Source: Candidatus Woesearchaeota archaeon (GTDB lineage Archaea > Nanobdellota > Nanobdellia > SCGC-AAA011-G17 > UBA489). Taken from it: DNA of 62,737 nucleotides. The DNA is taken from the NCBI GenBank assembly GCA_018658265.1, contig JABHVN010000002.1, positions 1 to 62,737 on the forward strand, read 5' to 3'. Below the pieces are notes generated by a model. It did no database searches. It worked only from the letters and a program-made list of their open reading frames with translations, and had not been told where the DNA came from. Shown here one piece after another: positions 2,754 to 53,654 of the stretch. Made by a program: the position numbers and the translations under genes. Every line of letters begins with the position of its first letter. Position 1 is the stretch's first letter.

Positions 2754-5700
2754 ATGGCTATAATTAAATCTATGAACCTTAAGGGGTTCAAAAGTTTCGC
2801 TAAACCATTAGACTTGCAATTTGGTAAAGGTTTCAACTGCATTATAGGTCCTAACGGTTCAGGTAAATCTAACGTAATGGATGCACTTTGTTTTGTTCTT
2901 GGAAAACTTTCAGCTAAATCAATGCGTGCAGAAAAAAGTTCTAACTTAATTTTTAATGGTGGTAAAAAGGGTTCGCCTCAAAAAGAAGCAGAAGTTTCAA
3001 TAGTTTTTTCAAATGATGATAATGAATTTCCAATTGATGCAGACGAACTAAAAATTACAAGGGTTATAAAAAACACAGGTAATTCTGTTTACAAAATTAA
3101 TGATCAAATATTAACAAGGCAACAAATTCTAGAAGTTTTAGCGGCAGGAAAGATTGATCCAGACGGACATAACATTATCCTTCAAGGAGACATTGTAAGG
3201 TTCATGGAAATGAAGCCATTACAAAGAAAAGAACTCATTGAAGAAATAGCAGGAATTTCAATTTATGAAGATAAAAAAAACAAAGCAATGAATTCATTAA
3301 CAAGGGTCGAATCACAAATAAATGATGTTAGTTTAATTCTAAAAGAACGTGAAGCATACTTAAGAGAACTAAAAAAAGAAAAAGAACAAGCAGAAAAATA
3401 CAGAAAATTAGAAAAAAATATCAAATCGAATAAGGCTACGTACCTTCATGTACAAATAACCGAAAAAGAGAAGAAATTAGATGACGTTAAATCAAAAATA
3501 GCTAAACAAGAGTCCCAATTAAGTAAATTTACTGAAAATGAAAAAGATATTCGTGAAAAAATCTCCACTAAGAAAAAAGAACTACAAGATCTAAATGATG
3601 ATATTGAAGAAAAGGGAGAAAAAGATGCCATTGTCCTTCAAGATGACATAGAGAAGCTTAAAACAGACACTGCTAAAAATACAGAAAGACTTTCTTCATG
3701 TAAATCCGAAGTAAATAAAATATCTGAAAGAAAAAAGCAATTAGAAGTTTCTATAGACGACACTACCAAAACTATCAAGGGCCTTGAAGAAAGTAAAAAA
3801 GAACTTTTAGAAGAAATTAAACTACTAAAAGAAAAAGAAATCAAACAATCTCAAAAAATTAATCAAATTAAGTCCAAATTAGGATATTCTGACAACACTG
3901 AACTAGAAAAAGTAGAAACTATCCTTGATGAAAAATTAAAGAGTTATGAAGACTTCCAATTAAAAAACCAAGAATTACTTCAAAAGAAATTCAAATTAGA
4001 TGCAGAAATAAGTACATTAAATGAAAAAATAAGTTCTGTTGAAAAATTAGAAAAAGATACTAGTTTGCAACAAACTAAGAAAGAAGTTGAAAAGATAGCA
4101 AAAGAACTAGACAAAAGATTAACCGAAGATACTGTTTTATTCTCCCAATTAAAAAAAGTAAAAGAAGATTATTCGATTCTAAATGAAAGGCTTTTCAAAA
4201 TTCAAACTCAAAAAAGCAGCATGAGGGCTTCTGCATCAGTAGATTTGGCAATTAGAAAAATTAAGGAATTAAAAAACCCACAAATATTTGGAACTGTAAG
4301 TGAACTAGGTGAAGTAGAAAAGAAATTCTCAACAGCATTAGAAGTTGCAGCAGGACCAAGAACAAGATCCTTAGTTGTTCAGGATGATAAAGTTGCTGCC
4401 GAATGTATCCGAACATTAAAAGCATCCAGAACAGGTATTGCAACATTCCTTCCAATGAATAAAATAAGAGGAAGACAAGTTACAAGAATAAAAGGTCCAG
4501 GAGTATATGGTTCTGCAATTGAATTAATTGATTTTGACCCAAGATTCAAAGAAATATTCTCCTACGTTTTTTCAAATACCTTAGTTGTAGAAAACATCGA
4601 AACTGCGAGAAAAGTAGGAATAGGCAAGGTTAGAATGGTAACTCTCGAAGGAGACCTTGTAGAAGTTTCAGGTGCAATGAATGGAGGATACAGAACTAAA
4701 AGAATAGGTCTTGGATTCCAAGAAAAGAATTTATCTTCAGATTTAGACAAATTAAGTGAAAAAATTGACAAGGCAGCTGCATTAAAAACTACTTTCGAAA
4801 ACAGAAAATTAGAAAACGAAAATAAAATATCCGAATTAAGAAACCTAAAAGCGCAATTAGAAGCAGAGGTAATCAAACACGAAAGAACTTCTTCAGGAAT
4901 AAGTCTAACAGAATTAAAGAAAGAAAGAGACTCAAATAAAATCAACCCCGTATACCAAGAATTCTCAGAACTTGGAAAGATTATGAGTACATTAAATAAT
5001 GAAATTCAAAAATTAAAAGCGGAAAGAATCAAACTAAAGGGAGATTCAAGTCCTTCCGAAGGAAAAGATGAGTTAGAATCCTCAGAAAGTAGAAGATTAA
5101 AAACAAGAGAAGAAGTTGTTGAAAAGAATACTCAAATAAAAAACATTGAAATACAAATAGCAAATATTTACATTCCAGAAAAAGAAAAAATACACCAGTT
5201 AATAAAAAATTGTGATAAGGAAAAAGAAGAGTTCAAGAAAGAAGTAAAAACATTGGAAGAGCTTCTAAAAGACCAAAGTTCTAGATTAAATAAAAAAGAA
5301 TCAGAAAAATCTAAATTCCAAAAATTATACAAAGATTTATTCTCAAAAAGAAACAAAATAAGTGAAAACATTCAAAAATTAGAGGCAAGTATACTTCTAG
5401 AAGCAAGTAAGGAAAAAACAATCAAAGACAGAATAAATGATCATGCAATCATCAAGGCTAAAGTAACTGCTGAGGTAGAAGCCCTAAACAGTGAATTTGA
5501 AGAGTTTAAGGGTGTACAACTAAGAAGAAGTCACTCCGTAGAAGAACTTAAACTTGAAATTAAGAACTTTGAATCAATGTTAAGCAAAATTGGAAATGTT
5601 AATATGCGTGCTTTAGAAGTATATGAAGAAATATTAAACGAATATACTAAATTAGTTGAAAAAAGAGATAAATTGAGCACAGAAAGAGAAGATGTTCTAA

Positions 5701-9835: not shown

Positions 9836-11041
9836 CTAATCTCTCCTTTTAAACCAATGCATCCAAACCAGATTAATCATAATTAAAATAATCAATATGC
9901 TTAATAATATCCAAGAAAGATTGCTAGTAAATTTATCCTCATAACCTTGTTTTACTCCTTCAACAACAAATTTATTTTCGTAAAACGTCGTTTCTATATT
10001 TTGTTCGATATCTTTGTTTCCATAATGCACTCTTAATTTAGTGATATATTCTCCTTCCTCTAAGTCTCCAACATCAATATGTCCTGTAAATTTTCCTTCT
10101 TTTCGTTTGGAAATGCTTTCCTTAGATGTGACAAATGAGCTTATTAATAAATTATTCAGATCATAAACACTTATTTCTGCATAAACATTATTTAATTCTT
10201 CATTCCAAATATTTTTAACAGTCACTTCGAATTTCACAGCATCTCCCAAAACTTCTCCCACAATTAAGTCATTAATACTCATTTTTCTTCCTTCAACAAT
10301 AAACTTATCTTCAAATTCATTAATTTTAGAATCGTATTCTAGAATAACATTAACAAAATACTCTCCAGGATTAACTTCAGTTGACCAAACTAATCTAATC
10401 TCTTTTCTTTCTCCAGTAACTATAGAAATAGATTTACTTTTTAGTTCATCAATAGTATTTTGTCCATCATGAATATTCAAAGCAACGCTAACTTTTGAAA
10501 GATTTTCTACACCCAAATTCTCAACAGGAATTACAAAAATAGTATTTGATCCTACGTCCCCCTCATAAATGTAAAAATCAGAAGAAATATATTTGGTATC
10601 ATGAGGTACTTTGACCCTCAGTAAACTAATCAAACCAACACTGGTACCTATTAAATTCTCTTTTAGATCTACAATTTCCCTAGCAGTAAAATAGATATCA
10701 TTATTTCCCTGAGAGATATCATTTTTTGAAAGAGTTTTTGGAATATTCAATGAATATTTGACAATAGTTTCTTTATTGGCCTCCAACGACAGAATATTTC
10801 CTTTTTCTAAAACTACATATTTAGACAATTCTCCTTCTACACCTATTGAAACCTTAGTAAACCTGTCTAAAGTATTAACTACTTTAAATTCCGATTCAAA
10901 ATTTAAGCCATCTTCAAAATCAACAATTTTTTTGGCAGGAGAAATGCCTAAAGCACTAACCAATGAAACAGTTAAAACTAACAAAGTAAAAACACTTAAC
11001 AAATTAAAAATAAATTTCTTACCCTCCATTGATTTCACCAT
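9836..11041 (-). CDS. Secreted multi-domain beta-rich protein with C-terminal TM anchor (paralog of 7685..8896)
   Basis: Signal peptide ending SALGISPA, CARDB-like VENLGVENLSKVSVALNI, C-terminal helix WILLSILIILIMINLVWMHW followed by FKRRD. The start overlaps the end of the giant ORF by 23 nt (alternative ATG at 11029). Confidence 0.7.
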   Translation of the reverse strand: MVKSMEGKKFIFNLLSVFTLLVLTVSLVSALGISPAKKIVDFEDGLNFESEFKVVNTLDRFTKVSIGVEGELSKYVVLEKGNILSLEANKETIVKYSLNIPKTLSKNDISQGNNDIYFTAREIVDLKENLIGTSVGLISLLRVKVPHDTKYISSDFYIYEGDVGSNTIFVIPVENLGVENLSKVSVALNIHDGQNTIDELKSKSISIVTGERKEIRLVWSTEVNPGEYFVNVILEYDSKINEFEDKFIVEGRKMSINDLIVGEVLGDAVKFEVTVKNIWNEELNNVYAEISVYDLNNLLISSFVTSKESISKRKEGKFTGHIDVGDLEEGEYITKLRVHYGNKDIEQNIETTFYENKFVVEGVKQGYEDKFTSNLSWILLSILIILIMINLVWMHWFKRRD

Positions 11042-14000
11042 ACCATGTTGTTAATTCCAAAATCATGCCCTTTGCGCCAGCCAATTCACCTACAGGGACA
11101 GATATATTAAAATCAATTCTAGCTTCATCAGAAGAATCATCTTTGCTTAAATTATTAATAAACTTTTCAGTAACTCCTGAGGCAGGCATAATTCTGTAAG
11201 TAATATTTGAATCTGCAGAATCAAAAGAAGATCCTTCTGTACCATCTCCAACTTTCACACTAAAATAATCTATACTATGAGGTAAACTTTGTGTATCCCA
11301 AAATGCAACAGTTGGCCCAGTAATATTAACATCCGCTAGAACATTTCCAGAGTTTTCAATCCAAATCGGACAAGGTGTAGGAGTTTGTGTTGATAAATCG
11401 CATCCAGAAGTTTCCGATCTAACCCCAACACCCAAACTACCAAAATCAACAACTTGATCTAAAATGTCTAATGCAATATAAGTAGACAAATTATAATTAA
11501 ATACTGTAGGTAAATCTTCTTCTTGTACATATGGATCTTCAGATTTTACTGTCCACCTATAAAAATTATTATCGTCATAAAATCTAGTTAATTCTGTAGG
11601 TAATGTAAAAGTACAATTATCTTCATTATCAAGATAACCATTAGCATTAGCATCACAATTCGTTGAATTTTCAACAACTAAATATTCTCTTTCGTCATCA
11701 CAAGTTCCACCTGCCACAACAAAACAACTAATGTTCAATGTATGGTTAACCTGATCTTGATCTGGATCAGATGTTCTACCTTGACAAAAGAAATTTCCTT
11801 CTGAAACGCAAGAAGTATTACTTACACTTGGCAACCTATCGAAAATATCAGAGGGAGTCCAATTAAACGTAGGTGTTCTGTTTGTGTAAGTTATTGTTTC
11901 ATCAGGGCCATTTAGTACTGCCGTGCCAGGTTCATAATTTTCAATAAAGATATATGATGAATTTTCTTGATCTGAAACACTGGACCTGGTATCGGTTGTA
12001 GTAATATTACAACTATAATTTTCAAAATGATTATATGTAAATGCCGAAAGATTATCCGTATATGGATATCCTGAAGTTAAACCTGTAGGAGTTTTAGTAG
12101 CGAACAAATCAGTACCATTGTAATACTTAATCGTTACATCTAATGTTGAATCCCAATCATCTAATGGTGTAAATGTACAATTAATACCTGTGGTTCTATT
12201 AACTCCTGTAGGGCCTATTGAGAGGGAATTAATTTCGGGTTTCCTATCTATTGTAAACATCCAAGAATCACTTTCATTTGAAAGTTTAGGTACATATTCT
12301 TCAGTATCGTAATCATCAACTTCAACAAACCAAGAATGATCTCCAGAAGGTAATCTATACATATCTAAAACTTCCGAAGCATTTAAACTTTTATTTAAAA
12401 TTGCAAATTCATCTATAGATCCATTAAATTCATAATCAATTAAACCTACGGCTGTTCTACCTACACCTATTAAAACAGCTGCATTATTGTTAGGCATTGA
12501 AGGAACTGTAAATGTACTATTAAAAACGCCATCTATGTAGATTGTTACTTGATCACTCTCATTAAAACTAACAACAATATGAGTCCATTCGTCTTTTTGA
12601 AAGACCCCATCAATAATGGGTGTACTCCCCTCTATTTTCAACCCAAAATCATCACCAACCTGTCTAATTGCAAAACCTGAAGAAACAGCAGCCCTTTTAT
12701 CAAATATTCCTCTTGTGTCACTTAAAATTCTTGGTTTGGCCCAGAAAGAATAAGAAATATTATTTTCACTTACCCAATTATCTTGATCCCCAAAGTTTAC
12801 AAGGTTATCTATAGATGTAGCCGTACTAAAAAATGTCCCCCCAAGTCTTCCCCCAGTTTTATTAATTCTTGCAGCACCCCCCATAGTTCCATTTTGAACA
12901 CCGTCAGAATCAGCAAAATCAAAAACATGTGTACTATTTTCCCCATATTTAGTATTATTATCAAAATGTGCCAACAATAAATAATTACTATCTGGAACTA
13001 AAACTGGAGCTGTCCAATTATAGGTAAGATATGTATTGTTTTGCCAACTAATGTTTTGATACAGCATATCTGAATATGAAACGTCAGATTTAGTTTGTCC
13101 ACTTGACCCATAAATCTTAACAAACATTAATGGATCTTCTGCATCTAACACAGTTGAATTCAATAAAATTTCTCCTACATCTGTGTAATTAGTAGTATTA
13201 ATTGGTGCAATTACAGTTGCATTGGGATGAGTATTCGTCACAACAGCACCTATGTCAAATTGAAATAAATCCGAATTATTAACTAACTGACTATCATCAC
13301 CAGAAGCATTCCAATAATAAGTTGTATCTGTTAATTTTAATGTTTGATTTATTTCTTCACTAGTTAAAGTTCTGTTTATTACAATAAAATCATCAATACC
13401 CCCATTCCAAGGAAGGGGATTACCACCATTATTAGAATTACTAGCTCCAATCCTAAAATTAAGAATTGCTGCAGTGTAAATTGCATGAGTATTTGTAAAT
13501 GTGTTATTCAATACACCATTCCTATATACTGCATATGACCCATTTTGAAATCTTGTAATGGCCATATGAACCCACTCGCCATTATTAAGAAAAAAACCTG
13601 GAGTAAGAGAAGTTGTATCACTTGCACCATTTCCTTGAATAACTGCCATATTTTTGCCATTTTGTCCAACAAAAAAACCAACATATTGTCCAGGAGCACC
13701 AGCAGGATCAAACACTCCCTGGGCAGCAAACATTCTTGATTGAGTTATATCGTCCGACCTAAGCCAACCCATAATAGTTAAATTCCACCTATGTTGAATT
13801 TCGGTATATCCAGGGGCAACTGTAACCCAGTCTCCTGTACCATCAAACTCAAAGTTTCCACCAAAAATATCATTACTATAATCTACTGCTGCATCGCCCC
13901 CCGGAGTACCATTTTTAACATCTGCCCAATCATAAACCTTTGTTGAAGATTCACCTTTAGATAAAATTTGATCAAAATGGAATCCAAATAATGTATCACT

Positions 14001-17000
14001 TACAATATCGAAAGGACGTTTACTAAAATTATAGCTTACTTTCGTACCATTGGTTACATTCGCCTTGTAAACTAAATCATCCAATTCAGGATTGCTATCA
14101 TTAGAAGCATAAATCTTCAAAGTAACATTATCCACAGGCAACAGGTCGTCAACAACTGTTACATTAAGCTCAACACCTGCAGTACCAGAATCATGATTAG
14201 TTGTATTTGCAGGAGCAGTAATTGTCACATTAGGTATTTCATTTGGATCTATAATGTGATCAAACTCTAAAAACGCAGTATTTAATCCATCATCATTAAT
14301 AACTTTCAAATCAAATGTATCATTCTCTCCAGACATAGCCGTCAAATAGGCCTTATAATACCCTTCAGAACTAATGTTATCAAATGTAGTAATTAAATTT
14401 GAAGTATTCTCTTCGTAAACCTTCACATGAGTATTCGCACTTTGATTATTCCTTACATAAATTTTAATGTGGTGTGCAGGAGTTAAATTTTGTTCAAAAG
14501 TTACCCTAACAATCTCAGTATTATTAATCATTTCAGTCCAATTACCATCCAAAGCATTAGTTTGATTATACACATCTGAAATAAAAGAATAATTTTCATC
14601 CAAATGTTGTGCAGCAGTTATATTTATTTCACCAAAACCTGGGTCATTAGGCGTGATAGTTATATTGTAATCTTGACCCGGAATCATCCCTTCTTTTAAT
14701 AACGTCCATGACCCTCCGCAAGATTGATCAGTATAATTCCAATCCGCACATTTATACAAAGTATTGGAAGTTGCAGTAACGGTTACCGTTGCATTTACAA
14801 AATTTTGTAGTTTGGGATTAATTGCAAATGTTTTTTGAAATTTATCTATTGGAACTGCTTTATCCAAATCAATAATTTGATTTACCCCATTAGACATGTT
14901 ATAATCTTCAAAAAGGATTTGTTTGATAGTTCCATCAATGGGTTTAAGAATAATATCATAAATTCCAGAAGATAAGCTCAAGTTGTGAATAGTTCCGTTT
15001 TGAGAATATACATTTCCTCCCCCATCACTATTAATTTCTAACGACACATTAACTGGAACACCATTTCCATCAACAACAGTTTCATTAACTGTCACATTAG
15101 AAGATTCTCCGCCACCAGAATAAGCTGGCCATTCAATTGTTTGAAAAGTATAATCTTGTATCTGTCCACTGTCAGATTGCCATAAATTTGCAGTAGAAGT
15201 ATCGGTTAGTTGAACTGCAACATATCCCCTTGGCCATGCCGTTCCAGTTCCACCGGACTGTGAACTAACACCTGCAATAGAAGTTTCTCCTAATCCGTAA
15301 GTTAAACCTGTAAGTGTTACTTGCCAATTATCTTCTTCCTCACCACCAGTTGGACGCGCAGTAGGATTATAATGAGTGACTTTCATAGGATAGTTTTCGG
15401 TTTGAGTATTAGAAATAACCCATGTTACCGCATTCATATTTGATCCCCAATTCGTAGTGCCCCTAGGCAAACTATAAGTAACTGTATTTGTTGCAGTCAA
15501 TTCAACTTCTGCACCACCTTGGATCAAACCATCATAATTATTTCCTGCTTCATTTCTCTGTTGAGTATGGAAAAATGCACGACTAATGGCACCAACATCA
15601 GTGATAGTATCATATTGGATTGCAGATGCATTAAAGGCATGCGCTACTCTTTGAACATTCCAATTTGAACCCTTATATTCTACAATTGCATAACTAATAT
15701 CGCAATTATCGCTTGCAGCTTCTCCCCTTGTAAATCTGGGTAAATCTGAAACGGCAACCCATGCAGAAGTTACCATACAAGATTGATGATCGTTTCTCCC
15801 TACATCAGAATTACTGGCGCCTGTCAAAAATACAACAACATCTGCATCATCAGTGGGAGCAATAATTGCTCCATCACAAGTTAAACTAGATGTTCCAAAA
15901 GAACAAGTTCCAGTATCAATAACATCCATTTCATTAGGATCTCCAATTGTTCCACTATACTCCCAGATTTCCCAAGAAATTCTATTGTTTGTTGCAGACC
16001 CACGTCTTGTAAATGTAATTGTCCCACTTCCAGCTGTAAGTCCTGTATCATCAGAAATGTAAGTAGTATAATCATCCACATTTTGGTTTCCTCCACCAGA
16101 TGTGCTTCCAACAGCATTGTTTCTTGAAGAAACCTGTTTAATAAAACAACTTCCAGTACATTGATTAAAGTCTACACCCTCTGTCAATATTCCAGTTAGG
16201 GATGCAGAACCCATGATCAATGAACCCCTTTGAATAGTAAAGTCGCTTGTACCACTAGGATCTACAATATAATCAAATTTTACTTTACCGTCAATTATTT
16301 TCAAATCAAATGTATCTTGTACACCTGCAAGTCCAGATAAATAAACTTTGTTAAATTCATCATTTCTAATAGCAACAAACTCAGCTATAATTTCTTTCCC
16401 ATCGACAGTATAAATTTCAATTTTTGGAGACCCTTCAATAATTTGAGGATAAATTGTTATATCGTTATCAGATCTTAAGTTTTTTTCAAAAGTTACTCTT
16501 ACATATTCACCATCATTTATTGTCTCACTCCAAATTCCATCTAATTTACTTACATTACTGTAAATATCTGACATAAATGTCCTATTTACATCTAAATGCA
16601 ATGCATTAGTAATTACAATTATTTCATAAGTTTCATTATTTTCTAAAAGTGGTACAACCCATTCAACATAGTCAACAAGACCATCTTGATTATTATCTTT
16701 TAATGAAAAGTTGTGTTTTTGTTTAATTTCTTTCCCAGTAAATGTGTCTAAAATTATTCTATAAAGATTAACTTTATCAGCCTCGCTTTCAGGAATGTTA
16801 ACAAAAGATAATACATTTTCATAAGTTAAATCTGATTTTAATACTACCCTCACACCTTCGGAGATATTTTCTACCTCTAATGTGGGACCAGGCGTTTCAT
16901 ATTCAATCTCAACAGTTTCAACTAGATCATCAACTTTAACTATATCTACCTCTGCACTAAGATTTGAATCATTCACAATTGTTTCTTGTAAAGGTAGGGT

Positions 17001-18899
17001 CTCTATCAAAGGAACTTCAGAAACGACCATCCCTGTTATTGAATTTCCGGTTATTGAATTCAAAATTCCTTTTGTAAATCCTTCTGAAGAATCTCCAGTT
17101 AAATTAATAATCGTCCCATTACCTTCATCCAAACTAGCAGAAACAATAGGGGCAGTTTTTCCATTAACTATTTTATTCAAAGTTATATTCTCAGCTACAT
17201 CAGGAAGTTCAAACTCAACCTTCTCTTTAGCAGCATCAAGCATTATTTTTTTCTTCCATTTTACAGGTTGACCTATAATCGCACCGTACTGTATTGTTTC
17301 TTCAGTAACATTTCCAACAGTAGAAACTATGGTAGTTGTTTTGGTAACATTTATCAAAGTTTCAACAATAATCTCTGGTTGAATATGTTCAACTCCAAGG
17401 ATAATTTTTCCTTGTCCATCATTAAAAGATAAAGAATAGTTAACTCCTTCTAAAGATTCATACTCACTTTTAATCAAACTTAAATCCAAAACTGAATCTT
17501 TAATATAAAATTTCAAAATAAAATTATTACTTAATACATTCTTTAATTTACAAGTATCTTCGCATCCAGAATCAAATGAATTTATAGTATAATCGCTAAC
17601 ATTCATAATATCTAATAGGTTAACCAAAAAATCTTCTTTCCCTACTTCAATTTCTTCTTCAGATTCAATTTCTAGATCTTCTTCAATATCTTCTAATTCA
17701 AATACTCCTTCTGCAAATGCCATAACCTCTCTAGCTAAATCTGCAGTATAATTTTCAGAATTGTTAATATCGAACAAATATATCCAATCAGTTAAACAAA
17801 TACCAAATTCAAAATCCCAGTAACTACAACCATACAAAAAGTCTCCTTCAGATTGTGCACTAAAAGAAGTATTAGTTTCATTAAAGGCAGTAAGGTTCAA
17901 TCCACTAAAATCAAACCCAAATACTCTTTCAAAAGATATGTTATTTGGTTCAATTAATCCCTTAGAAGAATACTCTTCATATGCAAACCACCCTTCTTTT
18001 TCAGGATATTCTATTTCAATAAAATCATCAAGTTCAACAACAGCAGTACCATTGCTCCCATTCAAAGATTCATACTTAACTTTTTTACCTCGTGAATCAA
18101 TTACATTAAAACCAGTTAATAATGATGCAATTTCCTTGTAATTCTTAATATTTTCAACAGGGTCTTCAAGAACAGCATTACCAGTTATACCTATTGAATC
18201 AAAAAAACTTTCATCATTAGATTCACTATCATAAACTAAATATGTATCTCCTGAATCAACATCAGATAAAAATATTTTAGCTACACCTTCTTCGAAAGAA
18301 GCAGTTCTTCCAGATAGCTTCAAACTCTTTAGTTTTTCAATTCCATTAAAATTTAAACTATACTCAGAACTTTCACTAACTAATAATGAGATCTTATGTT
18401 CTCCTTCTTCAACAGGCTTTGCTTCAGAAAAAATAAAATCTCCAGTTATTTTATTTCCTTCAGAAACTACATTACCAGTTATAGGGATTCCATCTTCGAA
18501 GCCTTCTCTAGCAATATCTGAAAATGTTTTAAATTCAATAGCAAAACCACCACTAATATCGTTACTGTTATCAACATTAAGGATACCTCCAAAATGCATA
18601 AATCCTACTAACATAGTTATCAAAACAAAAGACAAGAATATTCTATCTTTCATATGTACATCATGATCTTTAATTAAGATAAGATGTGTTCGAGGATTTA
18701 ATGTTTTTTTCAGGGTTGCACTACTTCTTTTATGGACCGATTTAGAACTTTCTTTCTTTAATACTTTTAATTTCTGTCCGGCTTTCTTTAAATCACTACC
18801 AAGATAAACAGATTTAACTTTTCCATTTTTCAGTCTAATACTATCGTAATAGTATGGACCTAATTTTTTACCCCTTTTTGTAATATACTTCTTATACAA
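11019..18899 (-). CDS. Giant (2,626 aa) membrane-anchored surface protein: two Ig-like+LamG units, a duplicated ~120-aa module, a Cys-rich region and a C-terminal beta-sandwich module shared with two small neighbours
   Basis: Uninterrupted 7.9-kb ORF. TTG start at 18899 preceded by AGAGGGA. Residues 1-82 are Lys/Arg-rich with GPYYYDS..NGKVKSVYLG. The first ATG (18653) opens the hydrophobic helix MKDRIFLSFVLITMLVGFMHFGG. LamG-type (Laminin_G_3-like) C-terminal signatures are GGIDDFIVINRTLTSEEINQ (~13345..13405) and GSIDEFAILNKSLNASEVLDMY (~12355..12420). Dozens of N-x-S/T sequons. Confidence 0.85.
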   Translation of the reverse strand: MYKKYITKRGKKLGPYYYDSIRLKNGKVKSVYLGSDLKKAGQKLKVLKKESSKSVHKRSSATLKKTLNPRTHLILIKDHDVHMKDRIFLSFVLITMLVGFMHFGGILNVDNSNDISGGFAIEFKTFSDIAREGFEDGIPITGNVVSEGNKITGDFIFSEAKPVEEGEHKISLLVSESSEYSLNFNGIEKLKSLKLSGRTASFEEGVAKIFLSDVDSGDTYLVYDSESNDESFFDSIGITGNAVLEDPVENIKNYKEIASLLTGFNVIDSRGKKVKYESLNGSNGTAVVELDDFIEIEYPEKEGWFAYEEYSSKGLIEPNNISFERVFGFDFSGLNLTAFNETNTSFSAQSEGDFLYGCSYWDFEFGICLTDWIYLFDINNSENYTADLAREVMAFAEGVFELEDIEEDLEIESEEEIEVGKEDFLVNLLDIMNVSDYTINSFDSGCEDTCKLKNVLSNNFILKFYIKDSVLDLSLIKSEYESLEGVNYSLSFNDGQGKIILGVEHIQPEIIVETLINVTKTTTIVSTVGNVTEETIQYGAIIGQPVKWKKKIMLDAAKEKVEFELPDVAENITLNKIVNGKTAPIVSASLDEGNGTIINLTGDSSEGFTKGILNSITGNSITGMVVSEVPLIETLPLQETIVNDSNLSAEVDIVKVDDLVETVEIEYETPGPTLEVENISEGVRVVLKSDLTYENVLSFVNIPESEADKVNLYRIILDTFTGKEIKQKHNFSLKDNNQDGLVDYVEWVVPLLENNETYEIIVITNALHLDVNRTFMSDIYSNVSKLDGIWSETINDGEYVRVTFEKNLRSDNDITIYPQIIEGSPKIEIYTVDGKEIIAEFVAIRNDEFNKVYLSGLAGVQDTFDLKIIDGKVKFDYIVDPSGTSDFTIQRGSLIMGSASLTGILTEGVDFNQCTGSCFIKQVSSRNNAVGSTSGGGNQNVDDYTTYISDDTGLTAGSGTITFTRRGSATNNRISWEIWEYSGTIGDPNEMDVIDTGTCSFGTSSLTCDGAIIAPTDDADVVVFLTGASNSDVGRNDHQSCMVTSAWVAVSDLPRFTRGEAASDNCDISYAIVEYKGSNWNVQRVAHAFNASAIQYDTITDVGAISRAFFHTQQRNEAGNNYDGLIQGGAEVELTATNTVTYSLPRGTTNWGSNMNAVTWVISNTQTENYPMKVTHYNPTARPTGGEEEDNWQVTLTGLTYGLGETSIAGVSSQSGGTGTAWPRGYVAVQLTDTSTANLWQSDSGQIQDYTFQTIEWPAYSGGGESSNVTVNETVVDGNGVPVNVSLEINSDGGGNVYSQNGTIHNLSLSSGIYDIILKPIDGTIKQILFEDYNMSNGVNQIIDLDKAVPIDKFQKTFAINPKLQNFVNATVTVTATSNTLYKCADWNYTDQSCGGSWTLLKEGMIPGQDYNITITPNDPGFGEINITAAQHLDENYSFISDVYNQTNALDGNWTEMINNTEIVRVTFEQNLTPAHHIKIYVRNNQSANTHVKVYEENTSNLITTFDNISSEGYYKAYLTAMSGENDTFDLKVINDDGLNTAFLEFDHIIDPNEIPNVTITAPANTTNHDSGTAGVELNVTVVDDLLPVDNVTLKIYASNDSNPELDDLVYKANVTNGTKVSYNFSKRPFDIVSDTLFGFHFDQILSKGESSTKVYDWADVKNGTPGGDAAVDYSNDIFGGNFEFDGTGDWVTVAPGYTEIQHRWNLTIMGWLRSDDITQSRMFAAQGVFDPAGAPGQYVGFFVGQNGKNMAVIQGNGASDTTSLTPGFFLNNGEWVHMAITRFQNGSYAVYRNGVLNNTFTNTHAIYTAAILNFRIGASNSNNGGNPLPWNGGIDDFIVINRTLTSEEINQTLKLTDTTYYWNASGDDSQLVNNSDLFQFDIGAVVTNTHPNATVIAPINTTNYTDVGEILLNSTVLDAEDPLMFVKIYGSSGQTKSDVSYSDMLYQNISWQNNTYLTYNWTAPVLVPDSNYLLLAHFDNNTKYGENSTHVFDFADSDGVQNGTMGGAARINKTGGRLGGTFFSTATSIDNLVNFGDQDNWVSENNISYSFWAKPRILSDTRGIFDKRAAVSSGFAIRQVGDDFGLKIEGSTPIIDGVFQKDEWTHIVVSFNESDQVTIYIDGVFNSTFTVPSMPNNNAAVLIGVGRTAVGLIDYEFNGSIDEFAILNKSLNASEVLDMYRLPSGDHSWFVEVDDYDTEEYVPKLSNESDSWMFTIDRKPEINSLSIGPTGVNRTTGINCTFTPLDDWDSTLDVTIKYYNGTDLFATKTPTGLTSGYPYTDNLSAFTYNHFENYSCNITTTDTRSSVSDQENSSYIFIENYEPGTAVLNGPDETITYTNRTPTFNWTPSDIFDRLPSVSNTSCVSEGNFFCQGRTSDPDQDQVNHTLNISCFVVAGGTCDDEREYLVVENSTNCDANANGYLDNEDNCTFTLPTELTRFYDDNNFYRWTVKSEDPYVQEEDLPTVFNYNLSTYIALDILDQVVDFGSLGVGVRSETSGCDLSTQTPTPCPIWIENSGNVLADVNITGPTVAFWDTQSLPHSIDYFSVKVGDGTEGSSFDSADSNITYRIMPASGVTEKFINNLSKDDSSDEARIDFNISVPVGELAGAKGMILELTTWYGEINGG

Positions 18900-26231: not shown

Positions 26232-26575
26232 TTAACCATAAATTAAAGCGCCTACAATTATGAAAATATAACAAATTTCCCAAAGAATATATGTTATAAC
26301 CAAAGGCTTTTCTTTATGTACAATTCCATAAAAGATCATTACCAAAGCTACAAAAAATAAGATATCCAAGAAACTACAGAAATTCCTGCCACATTTTTTT
26401 CAACCCATATTTTTAAGATTTGGGGAATAGTCATAACCAAACCAAAAAAACCAGCAGCATAAACCAGTTTATCCAAATTATTTTTTAGTTTATTTGGATG
26501 AGGATACTTTTCAAATTTTGTATGTACCCGTTTTCTAATATGTTGATGACTCTTTACATGCGTATCATGAACCAT
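26232..26575 (-). pseudogene. PQ-loop / SemiSWEET-like 3-TM transporter split by a -1 frame change at T6 (T TTT TTG TAG)
   Basis: The 0-frame ORF 26348..26575 carries TM1 with the PQILK motif and half of TM2, then stops at TAG 26348..26350. The -1 frame continues FFVALVMIFYGIVHKEKPLVITYILWEICYIFIIVGALIYG to TAA at 26232, completing TM2 and TM3. Confidence 0.65.
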
Positions 26576-26645
26576 ATTCAGAATTCAAAATAAAAACTAT
26601 ATAAAACTACCCATAAACGAAATTAAAAAATAAAAATTGAGGTTA

Positions 26646-27227
26646 CTATAACCTCTTTTCAACTTCTTCCCAATTAATTATTTTGAAGAAATTTTCGATC
26701 CATTCAGCTCTTCTGTTTTGATATTTCAAATAATATGCATGTTCCCATACATCGCAAACTAAAAGAATTTTGTATCCGGGAATGAAAACTTTTTGATGAT
26801 TCTCAACAGAGAATATTTTCAAATCTCCACTAGGACCTTTTGCTAAAACTCCCCAACCTGAACCTTCAACAGTCAAAGTCACTTTAGAAAATTCTTCTTT
26901 AAATTTATCAAAACTTCCAAAAGATTCTTCAATAGCTTCAAAAGTAGCACCTGTTGCAATATTATCTTCACTTCCAGATCTTAAATTGTTCCAGAAATAG
27001 CTATGTAATACATGTCCTGCACCATGAAATGCCAATTCCTTTTCCCAATGCTTAACTAAAGTATAGTCTCCTTTTTCACGACATTCTTTTAATTTAGCTA
27101 CAGCATTGTTCAAACCAGCAACATATCCTGCATGATGTTTAGTATGATGCAATTCCAAGGTTTCCTTATCATAATAAGGTTCCAAGGAATCATAACCATA
27201 ATTTAATTCTGGTAATTTATATTCCAT
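26646..27227 (-). CDS. sod: Fe/Mn superoxide dismutase
   Basis: LPELNYGYDSLEPY..ELHHTKHH, DVWEHAYYLKYQNRR; 193 aa; ends in TAG at the expected C-terminus. Confidence 0.95.
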   Translation of the reverse strand: MEYKLPELNYGYDSLEPYYDKETLELHHTKHHAGYVAGLNNAVAKLKECREKGDYTLVKHWEKELAFHGAGHVLHSYFWNNLRSGSEDNIATGATFEAIEESFGSFDKFKEEFSKVTLTVEGSGWGVLAKGPSGDLKIFSVENHQKVFIPGYKILLVCDVWEHAYYLKYQNRRAEWIENFFKIINWEEVEKRL

Positions 27228-27228
27228 T

Positions 27229-27807
27229 TTATATTTTACCTACTAAATCCATTCCAGGTTTTAATGTATCATTTCCAGGTTCCCAATTAACAGGGCAAAC
27301 TTGATCGCCATGCTCTTCAACAAATTGTGCAGCCTTAATTTTTCTTAACAATTCATTAGTACTTCTACCAATAGAATTATCATGTAATTCGTAAGCTTTC
27401 AAATTTCCTTCAGGATCAATAACAAAAGTTCCTCTTAATGATAAACCTTCATCACGGATGTAAGTTCCATAATTTCTACACATTCTTCCAGTTGGATCAG
27501 CAATCATTGGAAAATTTATTTTCTTAATTGTTTCAGAATTATCTTTCCAAGCCTTGTGTACAAATGCAGTATCTGTGCTTACACTTAAAATTTCTGTATT
27601 CAGTGCCTTAAATTCTTCATACTTGTCTGCTAAGTCTCCAAGTTCTGTTGGACAGATAAATGTAAAGTCTGCAGGATAGAAAAATAGTACTACCCATTTA
27701 CCCTTGTAATCACTAAGACTTACTTTTTTAGTATCATTTCCAACTAAAGCTTCAGCTGTAAAAGCCGGAGCCATTGTACCTATTTCTAATTTAATTTCAT
27801 CAGTCAT
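27229..27807 (-). CDS. Typical 2-Cys peroxiredoxin (AhpC/Prx1 family)
   Basis: Peroxidatic Cys in FYPADFTFICPTEL, resolving Cys in DQVCPVNW. Confidence 0.93.
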   Translation of the reverse strand: MTDEIKLEIGTMAPAFTAEALVGNDTKKVSLSDYKGKWVVLFFYPADFTFICPTELGDLADKYEEFKALNTEILSVSTDTAFVHKAWKDNSETIKKINFPMIADPTGRMCRNYGTYIRDEGLSLRGTFVIDPEGNLKAYELHDNSIGRSTNELLRKIKAAQFVEEHGDQVCPVNWEPGNDTLKPGMDLVGKI

Positions 27808-51338: not shown

Positions 51339-53033
51339 ATGACAAAAGAGATATTTAGCGACCATACACTAAACTTAATGAAAGGTTTTGTTCTAGAAAA
51401 TTTAGAAAAGTATGGCGAAGCTAATGCAAAAGCAATTTTAGGCAGATTACTGGGTTCAAATCCAGACCTTAAAACAAAAATAAAAGAATTAAATCAAGAA
51501 ATAAATGAAGTAATAATTAATTTCTCAGGATTATCTAAAGAAGAATTCAAAGAGTTACATTCGAAATACACTGCACATCTAACAAAGATGCCCGCTAAAG
51601 AAAAGAGAAAAGGTCTACCAAAACTAAAAGAAACAGATAGAGATTATTGTCTTAGATTTTCACCTTCTCCCTCTGGCCCATTGCATATTGGACACTCCAT
51701 GCCGTTATTGTTAAACAGTGAATATGCAAAAAAGTACAATGGCAAGTGCATTCTTAGGCTAGAAGATACAAACCCTTCAGGAATTTCATTAGAAGCATAC
51801 AAAACATTACAAGAAGATGCTAAGTGGCTCACACAAAATAACATTACAGAAGTAATTGTTCAATCTGAAAGAATAGATCTATATTACAAATACGCAAACG
51901 AACTAATCTCTAAAGGTCATGCATATGTTTGTCAATGTCCTTCAGAAGAATGGAAAGAAACTGTTTCAAACAAAGAAGATTGTCCATGTAGAAATTTAAC
52001 AATTGATCAACAAAAAGAAAGATGGCAAGGAATGTTAACAGATTTTGAAGAAGGTTCATCTGTACTTAGAATTAAAACAAATATGCAACATAAGAACCCT
52101 GCAATAAGAGATTGGCCAGCATTTAGAATAACGGAAGAAGAACATCCACTAGTAGGTAAAAAGTATAGGGTATGGCCTCTAATGAACTTTTCAGTAGCAA
52201 TAGACGACCATGAATCTGAATTAACACATGTTATTCGTGGAAAAGATCATTTAACCAATGCGGAAAGACAGGCATACATTTTCAAATATTTCAATTGGTT
52301 TATTCCCGAATATATTCACACAGGTAGAATTAATTTTGAAGGAATAAAAGTTTCGGCATCACAATTTTGTAAAGATATTGAAGATAAAAAATACACTGGA
52401 AGAGATGACTCCAAACTCCCAACAGTTGCAGCTTTCAAAAGAAGAGGAATCAATGCAGAAGCATTCATACAATATACTCATGAAGTTGGACCTTCAAAGG
52501 TAGACAAAACAGTTTCCTATGAAGAGTTCATGAAAGCAATTTATGCATACAACAGAACAATTATCGAACCCAAAGCAAACAGATATTTTATTATTGAAGA
52601 TCCAATTGAAATTGAAGTAAATAATATTCCTGATAACATCAAGGCAGAAATTCCATTACATCCAAACTTTCCAGAAAGGGGAGTAAGAAAATTCAAAAAA
52701 TCAAGTAAATTCTTTGTAGAAAAGAAAGAGGATATCCAAGACAAAAATTACAGATTGATGCATTTATGTAATTTCTCAGGAAAAGATTTCAATTTCATAT
52801 CTCAGAATCCAGATAAAGAACTAAAGACAAAAACAGTTCACTGGCTTCCAACAAATGAAGAAAATATCAAAGTTCTAGTAAAGACCCCTCATGGGAATGA
52901 CATTAAAGCCATTGGAGAACCAGCTTTAAAGCATATTAAAGAAAATGACATAGTTCAATTCGAAAGAAAATTCTTCGCAAAATTCGATTCTATGGAAGGA
53001 GACACATATGTCTTCTATGAGACCCATAAATAA
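51339..53033 (+). CDS. gltX: Glutamyl-tRNA synthetase (archaeal type)
   Basis: RFSPSPSGPLHIGH (HIGH), KVSAS (KMSKS-like), 564 aa. Confidence 0.92.
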   Translation: MTKEIFSDHTLNLMKGFVLENLEKYGEANAKAILGRLLGSNPDLKTKIKELNQEINEVIINFSGLSKEEFKELHSKYTAHLTKMPAKEKRKGLPKLKETDRDYCLRFSPSPSGPLHIGHSMPLLLNSEYAKKYNGKCILRLEDTNPSGISLEAYKTLQEDAKWLTQNNITEVIVQSERIDLYYKYANELISKGHAYVCQCPSEEWKETVSNKEDCPCRNLTIDQQKERWQGMLTDFEEGSSVLRIKTNMQHKNPAIRDWPAFRITEEEHPLVGKKYRVWPLMNFSVAIDDHESELTHVIRGKDHLTNAERQAYIFKYFNWFIPEYIHTGRINFEGIKVSASQFCKDIEDKKYTGRDDSKLPTVAAFKRRGINAEAFIQYTHEVGPSKVDKTVSYEEFMKAIYAYNRTIIEPKANRYFIIEDPIEIEVNNIPDNIKAEIPLHPNFPERGVRKFKKSSKFFVEKKEDIQDKNYRLMHLCNFSGKDFNFISQNPDKELKTKTVHWLPTNEENIKVLVKTPHGNDIKAIGEPALKHIKENDIVQFERKFFAKFDSMEGDTYVFYETHK

Positions 53034-53654
53034 CTAAACATCTTTAATTTTTTTAGCCCTTACAATTAAAATTTCTCCAAATGATACAGGAGTAAGAGAT
53101 AATGGCCAGATTTTTTTACTATGGAATATTATCCCATTTGTTTTTTTACCTGTAATTTCAAAACCACTAACTGCTAGAAGTTTTTTTAAATAACCAAAAT
53201 TAAAATCTTTAACATGTGTTTGAAAATCTTCACATCCATCTTCTCTTGCCATTGCGCAATATTCGGGCATCAATCCCAATAAAACACGAAATCTATTTTT
53301 TAATGAAGCTACATTTGGTGTAGAGATAATAACTTCGCCACCAATTTTTAAAACCGAATTACACTTCTTTAGAAAACTAACAGGGCTAATCATATGTTCA
53401 ATTAATTCTCCCGCAATAACTGTATCCACAGCATTACTCTTTAAGGGAATTTTATCTTTATTTAAATCGCAAACGATAGTTGGCTTAAGATGTTTGAAGC
53501 CATCAAGAGTAATAAGTTTGCCAATATTCAATCCATTAGATATTGCATTTTCACCAACACCCATATCTAAAACAGTTTTTTTAGAAACGTCATCAATTAA
53601 TTCCCTCATTTTCAAAAATCTAAGACGGGTCTGTATATTGAATTCATCTTCCAT
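53034..53654 (-). CDS. Class I SAM-dependent methyltransferase
   Basis: Motif I VLDMGVGEN and post-I acidic residue; 206 aa. Confidence 0.75.
   Translation of the reverse strand: MEDEFNIQTRLRFLKMRELIDDVSKKTVLDMGVGENAISNGLNIGKLITLDGFKHLKPTIVCDLNKDKIPLKSNAVDTVIAGELIEHMISPVSFLKKCNSVLKIGGEVIISTPNVASLKNRFRVLLGLMPEYCAMAREDGCEDFQTHVKDFNFGYLKKLLAVSGFEITGKKTNGIIFHSKKIWPLSLTPVSFGEILIVRAKKIKDV

Follow-up and report, generated by a model that had tools for sequence, protein, structure and literature searches.

In the window, by which we mean the whole 62,737-nucleotide stretch of DNA analysed here from a Candidatus Woesearchaeota archaeon, a gene of the SemiSWEET transporter family is split over two reading frames. 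The locus is probably a young, fixed pseudogene of a dispensable SemiSWEET gene that arose by deletion of a single nucleotide, its slippery look being a by-product of that deletion. A first-pass annotation had read the site as one of programmed -1 frameshifting and named a homopolymer length error or a pseudogene as more mundane alternatives. It is the pseudogene that our analysis favours, given a break that is real in the DNA, intact relatives, a stimulator that is not predicted and recurrent decay of the gene. Programmed -1 frameshifting itself gained no support, with the relatives intact and devoid of a slippery site and with no structure predicted downstream.

A SemiSWEET gene interrupted within its second transmembrane helix

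The upstream part of the gene, ORF A, encodes an N-terminal head rich in His, Arg and Lys, then TM1, the first transmembrane helix, which bears the PQ motif TIPQILKIW, and finally the initial half of TM2, where it breaks off as ...GISVVSWISYFL* (Table 1). It closes with the codons tat (26359-57), ttt (26356-54) and ttg (26353-51), directly followed by tag (26350-48). Reading of the ORF thus bore out what had been said of the 0 frame in the first-pass annotation, namely a His-rich head, TM1 and half of TM2 before a TAG, and likewise its description of the heptamer T TTT TTG as in phase, of the X XXY YYZ type and with a stop codon next to it. The -1 frame is open from 26399 to its TAA and overlaps the open 0 frame by 49 nt only; the remainder of TM2, the conserved HKEKP loop and TM3 are encoded in it. 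The expectation that this continuation completes a 3-TM PQ-loop unit also held, as the 114-aa protein obtained by joining the two parts gives a gapless alignment with relatives of the same length, at up to 81% identity (E = 1e-56). Judged by this alignment, the homology of the joined protein is far beyond chance.

Table 1. Features of the interrupted gene in the window and damaged copies of the gene in other genomes of the order.
Feature	Position	Strand	Remarks
ORF A, 75 aa	26348..26575	minus	ATG at 26575; TAG stop 26350..26348
Frame junction T TTT TTG (T6 run + G), TAG directly after	26351..26357	minus	1 base short relative to the intact gene
-1-frame continuation, ...VALVMIFYGIVHKEKPLVITYILWEICYIFIIVGALIYG*	26232..26351	minus	TAA stop 26234..26232
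TATA-box-like element TTTTATATA	26598..26606	minus	23-31 nt upstream of the ATG; identified by eye
Damaged copy in G220 (L063)	G220:C15 ~3361-3400		1-nt frame break at CAGGGGTTT, TM1-TM2 loop, near column 64
Damaged copy in G234 (L066)	G234:C266		two in-frame stops
Damaged copy in G172 (L064)	G172:C14		short remnant with stops
Damaged copy in G113 (L065)	G113:C20		short remnant with stops

In the family alignment, the invariant W70 and the nearly invariant Y73 fall in frame 0 and the VMI.YG block in frame -1, and the switch of frames must therefore sit within TTT TTG. Which base is missing there is ambiguous: an added T would give T7 and YFFVA, whereas an added G would give TTG GTA and YFLVA. 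As the nine closest relatives have V, L or I in the column of the ambiguous residue, Leu (TTG GTA) fits better and is at least as likely as T7. The T7 named in the first-pass annotation is thus one of two possible repairs. YFFVA would not be the product of a slip, as had been assumed, because the residue inserted by tandem -1 slippage on U UUU UUG would be Leu (YFLVA). The peptide spanning the junction of the joined protein would be ...SWISYFLVALVMIFYGIVHK, or its Phe variant. Decoding by an alternative genetic code was considered and discarded: the 0 frame past the TAG reads CTT TGG TAA TGA, and it is the other frame that encodes the homologous residues. Upstream of the gene, the TATA-box-like TTTTATATA would fit an archaeal promoter and a (near-)leaderless transcript.

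With the Pfam PQ-loop model PF04193 (cut-off 22 bits), ORF A alone scored 22.0, right at the cut-off, and the joined protein 23.5. A family profile built from 17 intact relatives and matched to solved structures covered all three helices, with 4QND first (E = 4.7e-13, profile positions 30-112), then 9KON, 4RNG (1.2e-7), 4QNC and 4X5M (5.3e-6). By these profile matches, the family is of the SemiSWEET type (PQ-loop, 3-TM), with an added basic, His-rich N-terminal head. It shares with the solved bacterial SemiSWEETs (Vibrio sp. 4QND, Leptospira 4QNC, Thermodesulfovibrio 4RNG, E. coli 4X5M/4X5N) the PQ motif in TM1 and a core of similar size, but the archaeal family adds a head of ~35 residues outside the aligned region and the window copy is, in addition, interrupted in TM2. 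The nearest named homologues come from records of 'Candidatus Pacearchaeota', 'Candidatus Woesearchaeota' and an unclassified archaeon. In the window copy, the 3-TM unit does not lie in a single frame, with a TAG after residue 75 and the remainder in the -1 frame; the locus is a broken member of the SemiSWEET family, not a working one, unless recoding occurs.

As regards the head of this subfamily, the ~35 His/Arg/Lys-rich residues (window 26470-26575 in ORF A) follow the consensus HHQHxRKR, in which H10, R14 and K15 do not vary. One may guess that the head binds metal or serves as a positive-inside anchor.

Could the fragments be functional as they stand, be it the 75-aa peptide alone or a split transporter whose C-terminal piece is initiated separately (at TTG 26369 or ATG 26339)? 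There are start codons in the -1 frame near the junction, and the downstream part is undecayed, as such an arrangement would have it. However, none of the relatives is organised in this way, the 45-aa piece is called in no assembly, and a transmembrane helix is cut in two by the break, while the match to SemiSWEET structures extends across all three. We consider functional fragments extremely improbable.

The break is present in the DNA of a nearly clonal population

The exact 75-aa truncated product was found on 32 contigs elsewhere, and a one-residue variant of it on one more. Ten contigs (L014-L023) from five JGI samples and five ENA assemblies, named in the styles of three assemblers, match the window at 99.92-100% identity over 2-6 kb, and each has the same T6-G-TAG. 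The contig occurs, for example, in JGI samples 3300024243, 3300022916 and 3300000216 and in ENA ERZ4200986 and ERZ27250149. An eleventh contig (L035), with one base different over 574 bp (99.8%), has T6 too, and each contig differs from the window by at most two bases. Besides, in-frame runs of T7 and A7 elsewhere in the same gene were assembled consistently. The repaired 114-aa protein, with either Phe or Leu at the junction, was absent from a collection of ~15 billion proteins, and the best full-length match to the joined sequence had 81% identity.

These observations bear on the reading that the break is an artefact of sequencing or assembly and that the true gene is contiguous and encodes 114 aa. 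While a break at a homopolymer, in a metagenome-type assembly of 47 contigs, is what such an error would look like, the recurrence of T6 in several samples, on 11 other contigs named in three assembler styles, the T7 and A7 runs assembled in frame and the lack of a repaired version among the proteins make a one-off assembly error very unlikely. The length error suggested by the first-pass annotation is thus contradicted by identical sequence in those 11 contigs, and we regard any artefact as a highly improbable cause of the break. The broken allele appears to be fixed in a nearly clonal environmental population.

Productive transcriptional slippage generally needs runs of ~8-9 or more A/T. This matters for another reading, in which the site would be a T6/T7 on/off contingency locus, or in which stutter of RNA polymerase would yield some cells or transcripts with the gene in frame. 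The break does lie in or beside the T6 run, and homopolymers are the classical substrate of both DNA slippage and RNA polymerase stutter (PMC5009743). Yet every contig has T6, there is no intact allele on record, the run is shorter than what transcriptional slippage generally needs, and a G may have been lost just as well as a T. Such rescue at the homopolymer is therefore very improbable.

Relatives are contiguous at the site

A search of 40 related genomes yielded 11 matches, all of them contiguous. T6 occupies the site in one match only (G002), and there it is in frame (GTA TTT TTT GTT). The nine closest relatives, all metagenomic and 62-81% identical, are contiguous as well and read TAT TTT GTT ATT, TAT TTT CTA ATT, TAT ATG GTT ATT and similar at this position. 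None of these nine has a T run at the junction site, and a stop was found there neither in the nine nor in the 11 matches. The break at this site is also absent from the other 48 matching genomes of the order (240 searched). The first-pass annotation had asked for conservation of heptamer and frame break among orthologs; instead, the orthologs are intact without a slippery site, an outcome that it had itself named as refuting its reading.

Weighing frameshift signals

The principal rival of the pseudogene is -1 frameshifting, either corrective or programmed, in which a ribosome that has reached U UUU UUG, and has UAG in its A site, would pause and slip back by one base. The slip could be a tandem one of the Phe and Leu tRNAs or one of the P-site tRNA-Leu; translation would then proceed with GUA GCU... 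through ..SYFLVALV.. to a protein of 114 aa, made at a low or regulated level. Several observations at the locus agree with this: the heptamer has the right phase and is formally a valid X XXY YYZ, the stop directly after it could lengthen the pause while in the A site, the downstream frame is intact with a dN/dS of 0.125, as continued translation would give, and the broken allele is fixed in all samples. With tRNA-Leu(UAA) and tRNA-Leu(CAA) present in the genome, a P-site or tandem slip is also chemically conceivable.

Published measurements of the motif point both ways. When a pseudoknot is supplied in eukaryote-type assays, U_UUU_UUG is one of the most efficient motifs (PMC4066793). In E. 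coli, which is not the archaeal host, UUUUUUG is a weak motif, shifting at 0.118% (i.e. ~0.1%) without a stimulator, at 0.247% in a second tabulated condition and at 0.765% with the IS3 pseudoknot (PMC4066793). As for a stimulator at the present locus, the predicted folding energy of the 101 nt 3' of the site is -14.7 kcal/mol, no better than that of 200 shuffles of the same stretch (-14.87 +/- 2.89; z = 0.06), so the downstream structure that the earlier reading had called for is not predicted.

The elements of the site turned out to be common in this genome. T TTT TTG occurs in phase 24 times in host-genome ORFs of at least 200 codons, which counts against a special meaning of this one instance. 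Stops in the +1 frame arise at ~0.09-0.11 per codon, in the SemiSWEET gene and genome-wide, and as ~9-11% of +1-frame codons are thus stops, a TAG as the next codon is unremarkable. What is more, a 1-base deletion in TAT TTT TT(T/G) GTA GCT yields T TTT TTG TAG of necessity, and heptamer and stop are therefore automatic consequences of a deletion at this spot. Together with the absence of the site and of the two-frame layout from every relative examined, and with breaks of the family elsewhere at different, non-slippery positions, this leaves frameshifting as an unlikely explanation.

A scan of the whole genome for homopolymer-linked frame switches returned 93 candidates, nearly all of them noise from antisense or off-frame ORFs, and none of these 93 was a further break of the T-run-plus-stop kind in a recognisable gene. 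The most striking candidate, a G6 run at ~12,842, was rejected as a frame break, for it belongs to an off-frame ORF inside an intact ORF of 2626 aa. The latter (window 11019-18899, minus strand) is a single, Asn/Thr/Ser-rich reading frame whose product is apparently a giant repetitive surface protein. In a DUF3604-family gene on another contig of the host genome (G000:C19 ~52960-53080), a signal-peptide ORF and the main ORF lie in different frames that overlap near ...ATTGGGGCACATATGGGAAAAC..., possibly a second 1-nt frame break in that genome.

Selection on the two parts of the gene

We compared dN/dS (Nei-Gojobori) upstream and downstream of the break, using the nearest relative, L024, as the reference; the population itself is 99.8-100% identical and holds no usable polymorphisms. 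The values were 0.126 upstream and 0.125 downstream, and the window copy has acquired no further stop or indel downstream of the break. Such a pattern would be expected of a very recent lesion and of continued selection alike; from the standard errors we estimate, roughly, that the lesion is younger than ~0.09 substitutions per site. Because dN/dS is ~0.125 on both sides of the break, low-level corrective slippage retains a small probability. The broken allele is the only one seen in every sample, and hence is not strongly counter-selected.

Loss of the gene across the order and its genomic neighbourhood

The SemiSWEET gene was found in 3/8 other genomes of the genus, 7/24 of the family and 49/240 of the order. 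Four other genomes have damaged copies, with lesions at other places (Table 1). Only that of G220 is frame-broken like the window copy, and its break site is non-slippery. Thus, the gene is dispensable and prone to decay, and its recurrent loss is the background pattern in the order.

The host genome (617 kb on 47 contigs, metagenome-type assembly; 32.5% G+C; 92% complete) holds no second SemiSWEET copy on any of its 47 contigs. In this 92%-complete assembly, ARAGORN called 33 tRNA genes, including those for tRNA-Leu(UAA) and tRNA-Leu(CAA), and found none for tRNA-Phe, tRNA-Cys or tRNA-Tyr; the missing ones may lie on absent contigs, or may be intron-containing or split and escape detection.

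In the window, the SemiSWEET gene adjoins genes for an Fe/Mn superoxide dismutase and a 2-Cys peroxiredoxin (26232-27807). In G017, which belongs to another genus of the same family, an intact homologue is flanked by a peroxiredoxin gene (61% identity) and a superoxide dismutase-like gene (L003/L041, G017:C1:187722-191063). These neighbours are common to the window locus and G017 only and differ in all other loci examined. Copies from another family of the order (L036 and L037, from G223 and G228; f28) share 57-58% identity with the window gene, and those of its own genus (L004, L005, L009), which sit in another genomic context, share only 38-46%. As the gene contexts differ, strict orthology with these same-genus copies is doubtful. 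The departure of the SemiSWEET gene tree from taxonomy suggests paralogy or horizontal transfer.

Discussion

On the reading that we prefer, that of a recent pseudogene, the single SemiSWEET gene of the host would be missing one base from an original TAT TTT TT(T or G) GTA GCT. This loss would move the ribosome to the ancestral +1 frame, where it would meet a TAG at once and terminate after 75 residues, in the middle of TM2. The resulting fragment would have neither the second half of TM2 nor any of TM3, and for this reason could not fold into the bundle of three helices, two copies of which pair to make a SemiSWEET pore. The mutation would then have become fixed in an almost clonal population, too recently for further decay to be visible, and the 'slippery heptamer plus stop' would be a by-product of where the deletion fell, not a signal. 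We infer that the gene is non-functional and that the deletion, neutral or slightly deleterious, was fixed by drift or hitch-hiking.

In most respects the locus resembles ordinary young pseudogenes of reduced genomes, with a single disabling indel, intact orthologues, a patchy distribution and copies at a later stage of decay (G220, G234, G172 and G113). The sole notable difference is that this lesion happens to make a textbook-looking slippery site.

Established -1 sites offer a second comparison. The A_AAA_AAG sites of bacterial dnaX and of IS3/IS911 have X XXY YYZ in the 0 frame and a protein that continues in the -1 frame, as here, and the same holds for archaeal candidates, i.e. the Mg-chelatase A_AAA_AAR in Methanocaldococcus and a possible case in Sulfolobus. 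Known sites are, however, kept across relatives by purifying selection, and most are accompanied by a Shine-Dalgarno-like element, a stem-loop or a pseudoknot (PMC5009743; PMC4066793), whereas the site in the window is unique to one near-clonal population, lacks a predicted structure and consists of a motif that is weak in E. coli.

Closer in kind are the instances of corrective or 'savior-indel' frameshifting from mitochondria, long-term endosymbionts and the G-run of the herpesvirus thymidine kinase gene, which share with the present locus a 1-nt indel in or beside a homopolymer and, in part, a reduced genome (PMC5009743). Small-genome endosymbionts and mitochondria have been described to retain indels for which frameshifting partly compensates (PMC5009743), and here, too, occasional slippage might in principle yield a little full-length product (PMC5009743). 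Yet the products of those other genes are demonstrably needed or have been detected, while the gene discussed here is dispensable in most relatives. We judge it improbable that this reduced-genome (DPANN-type) archaeon keeps the deletion because slippage at U UUU UUG/UAG, unaided by a stimulator, supplies the little transporter that it needs. If true, this would be a rare instance of an archaeal chromosomal gene whose deletion is compensated by -1 frameshifting.

In summary, the present locus, if a pseudogene as we think probable, would be a textbook case of how a 1-base deletion in or near a homopolymer can mimic a programmed frameshift site, and as such would matter little by itself. It may rather serve as a calibration: a heptamer and an adjacent stop are not independent evidence of recoding when both follow from the deletion. 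For the SemiSWEET family, it would add a data point for the ongoing loss of these genes in small archaeal genomes.
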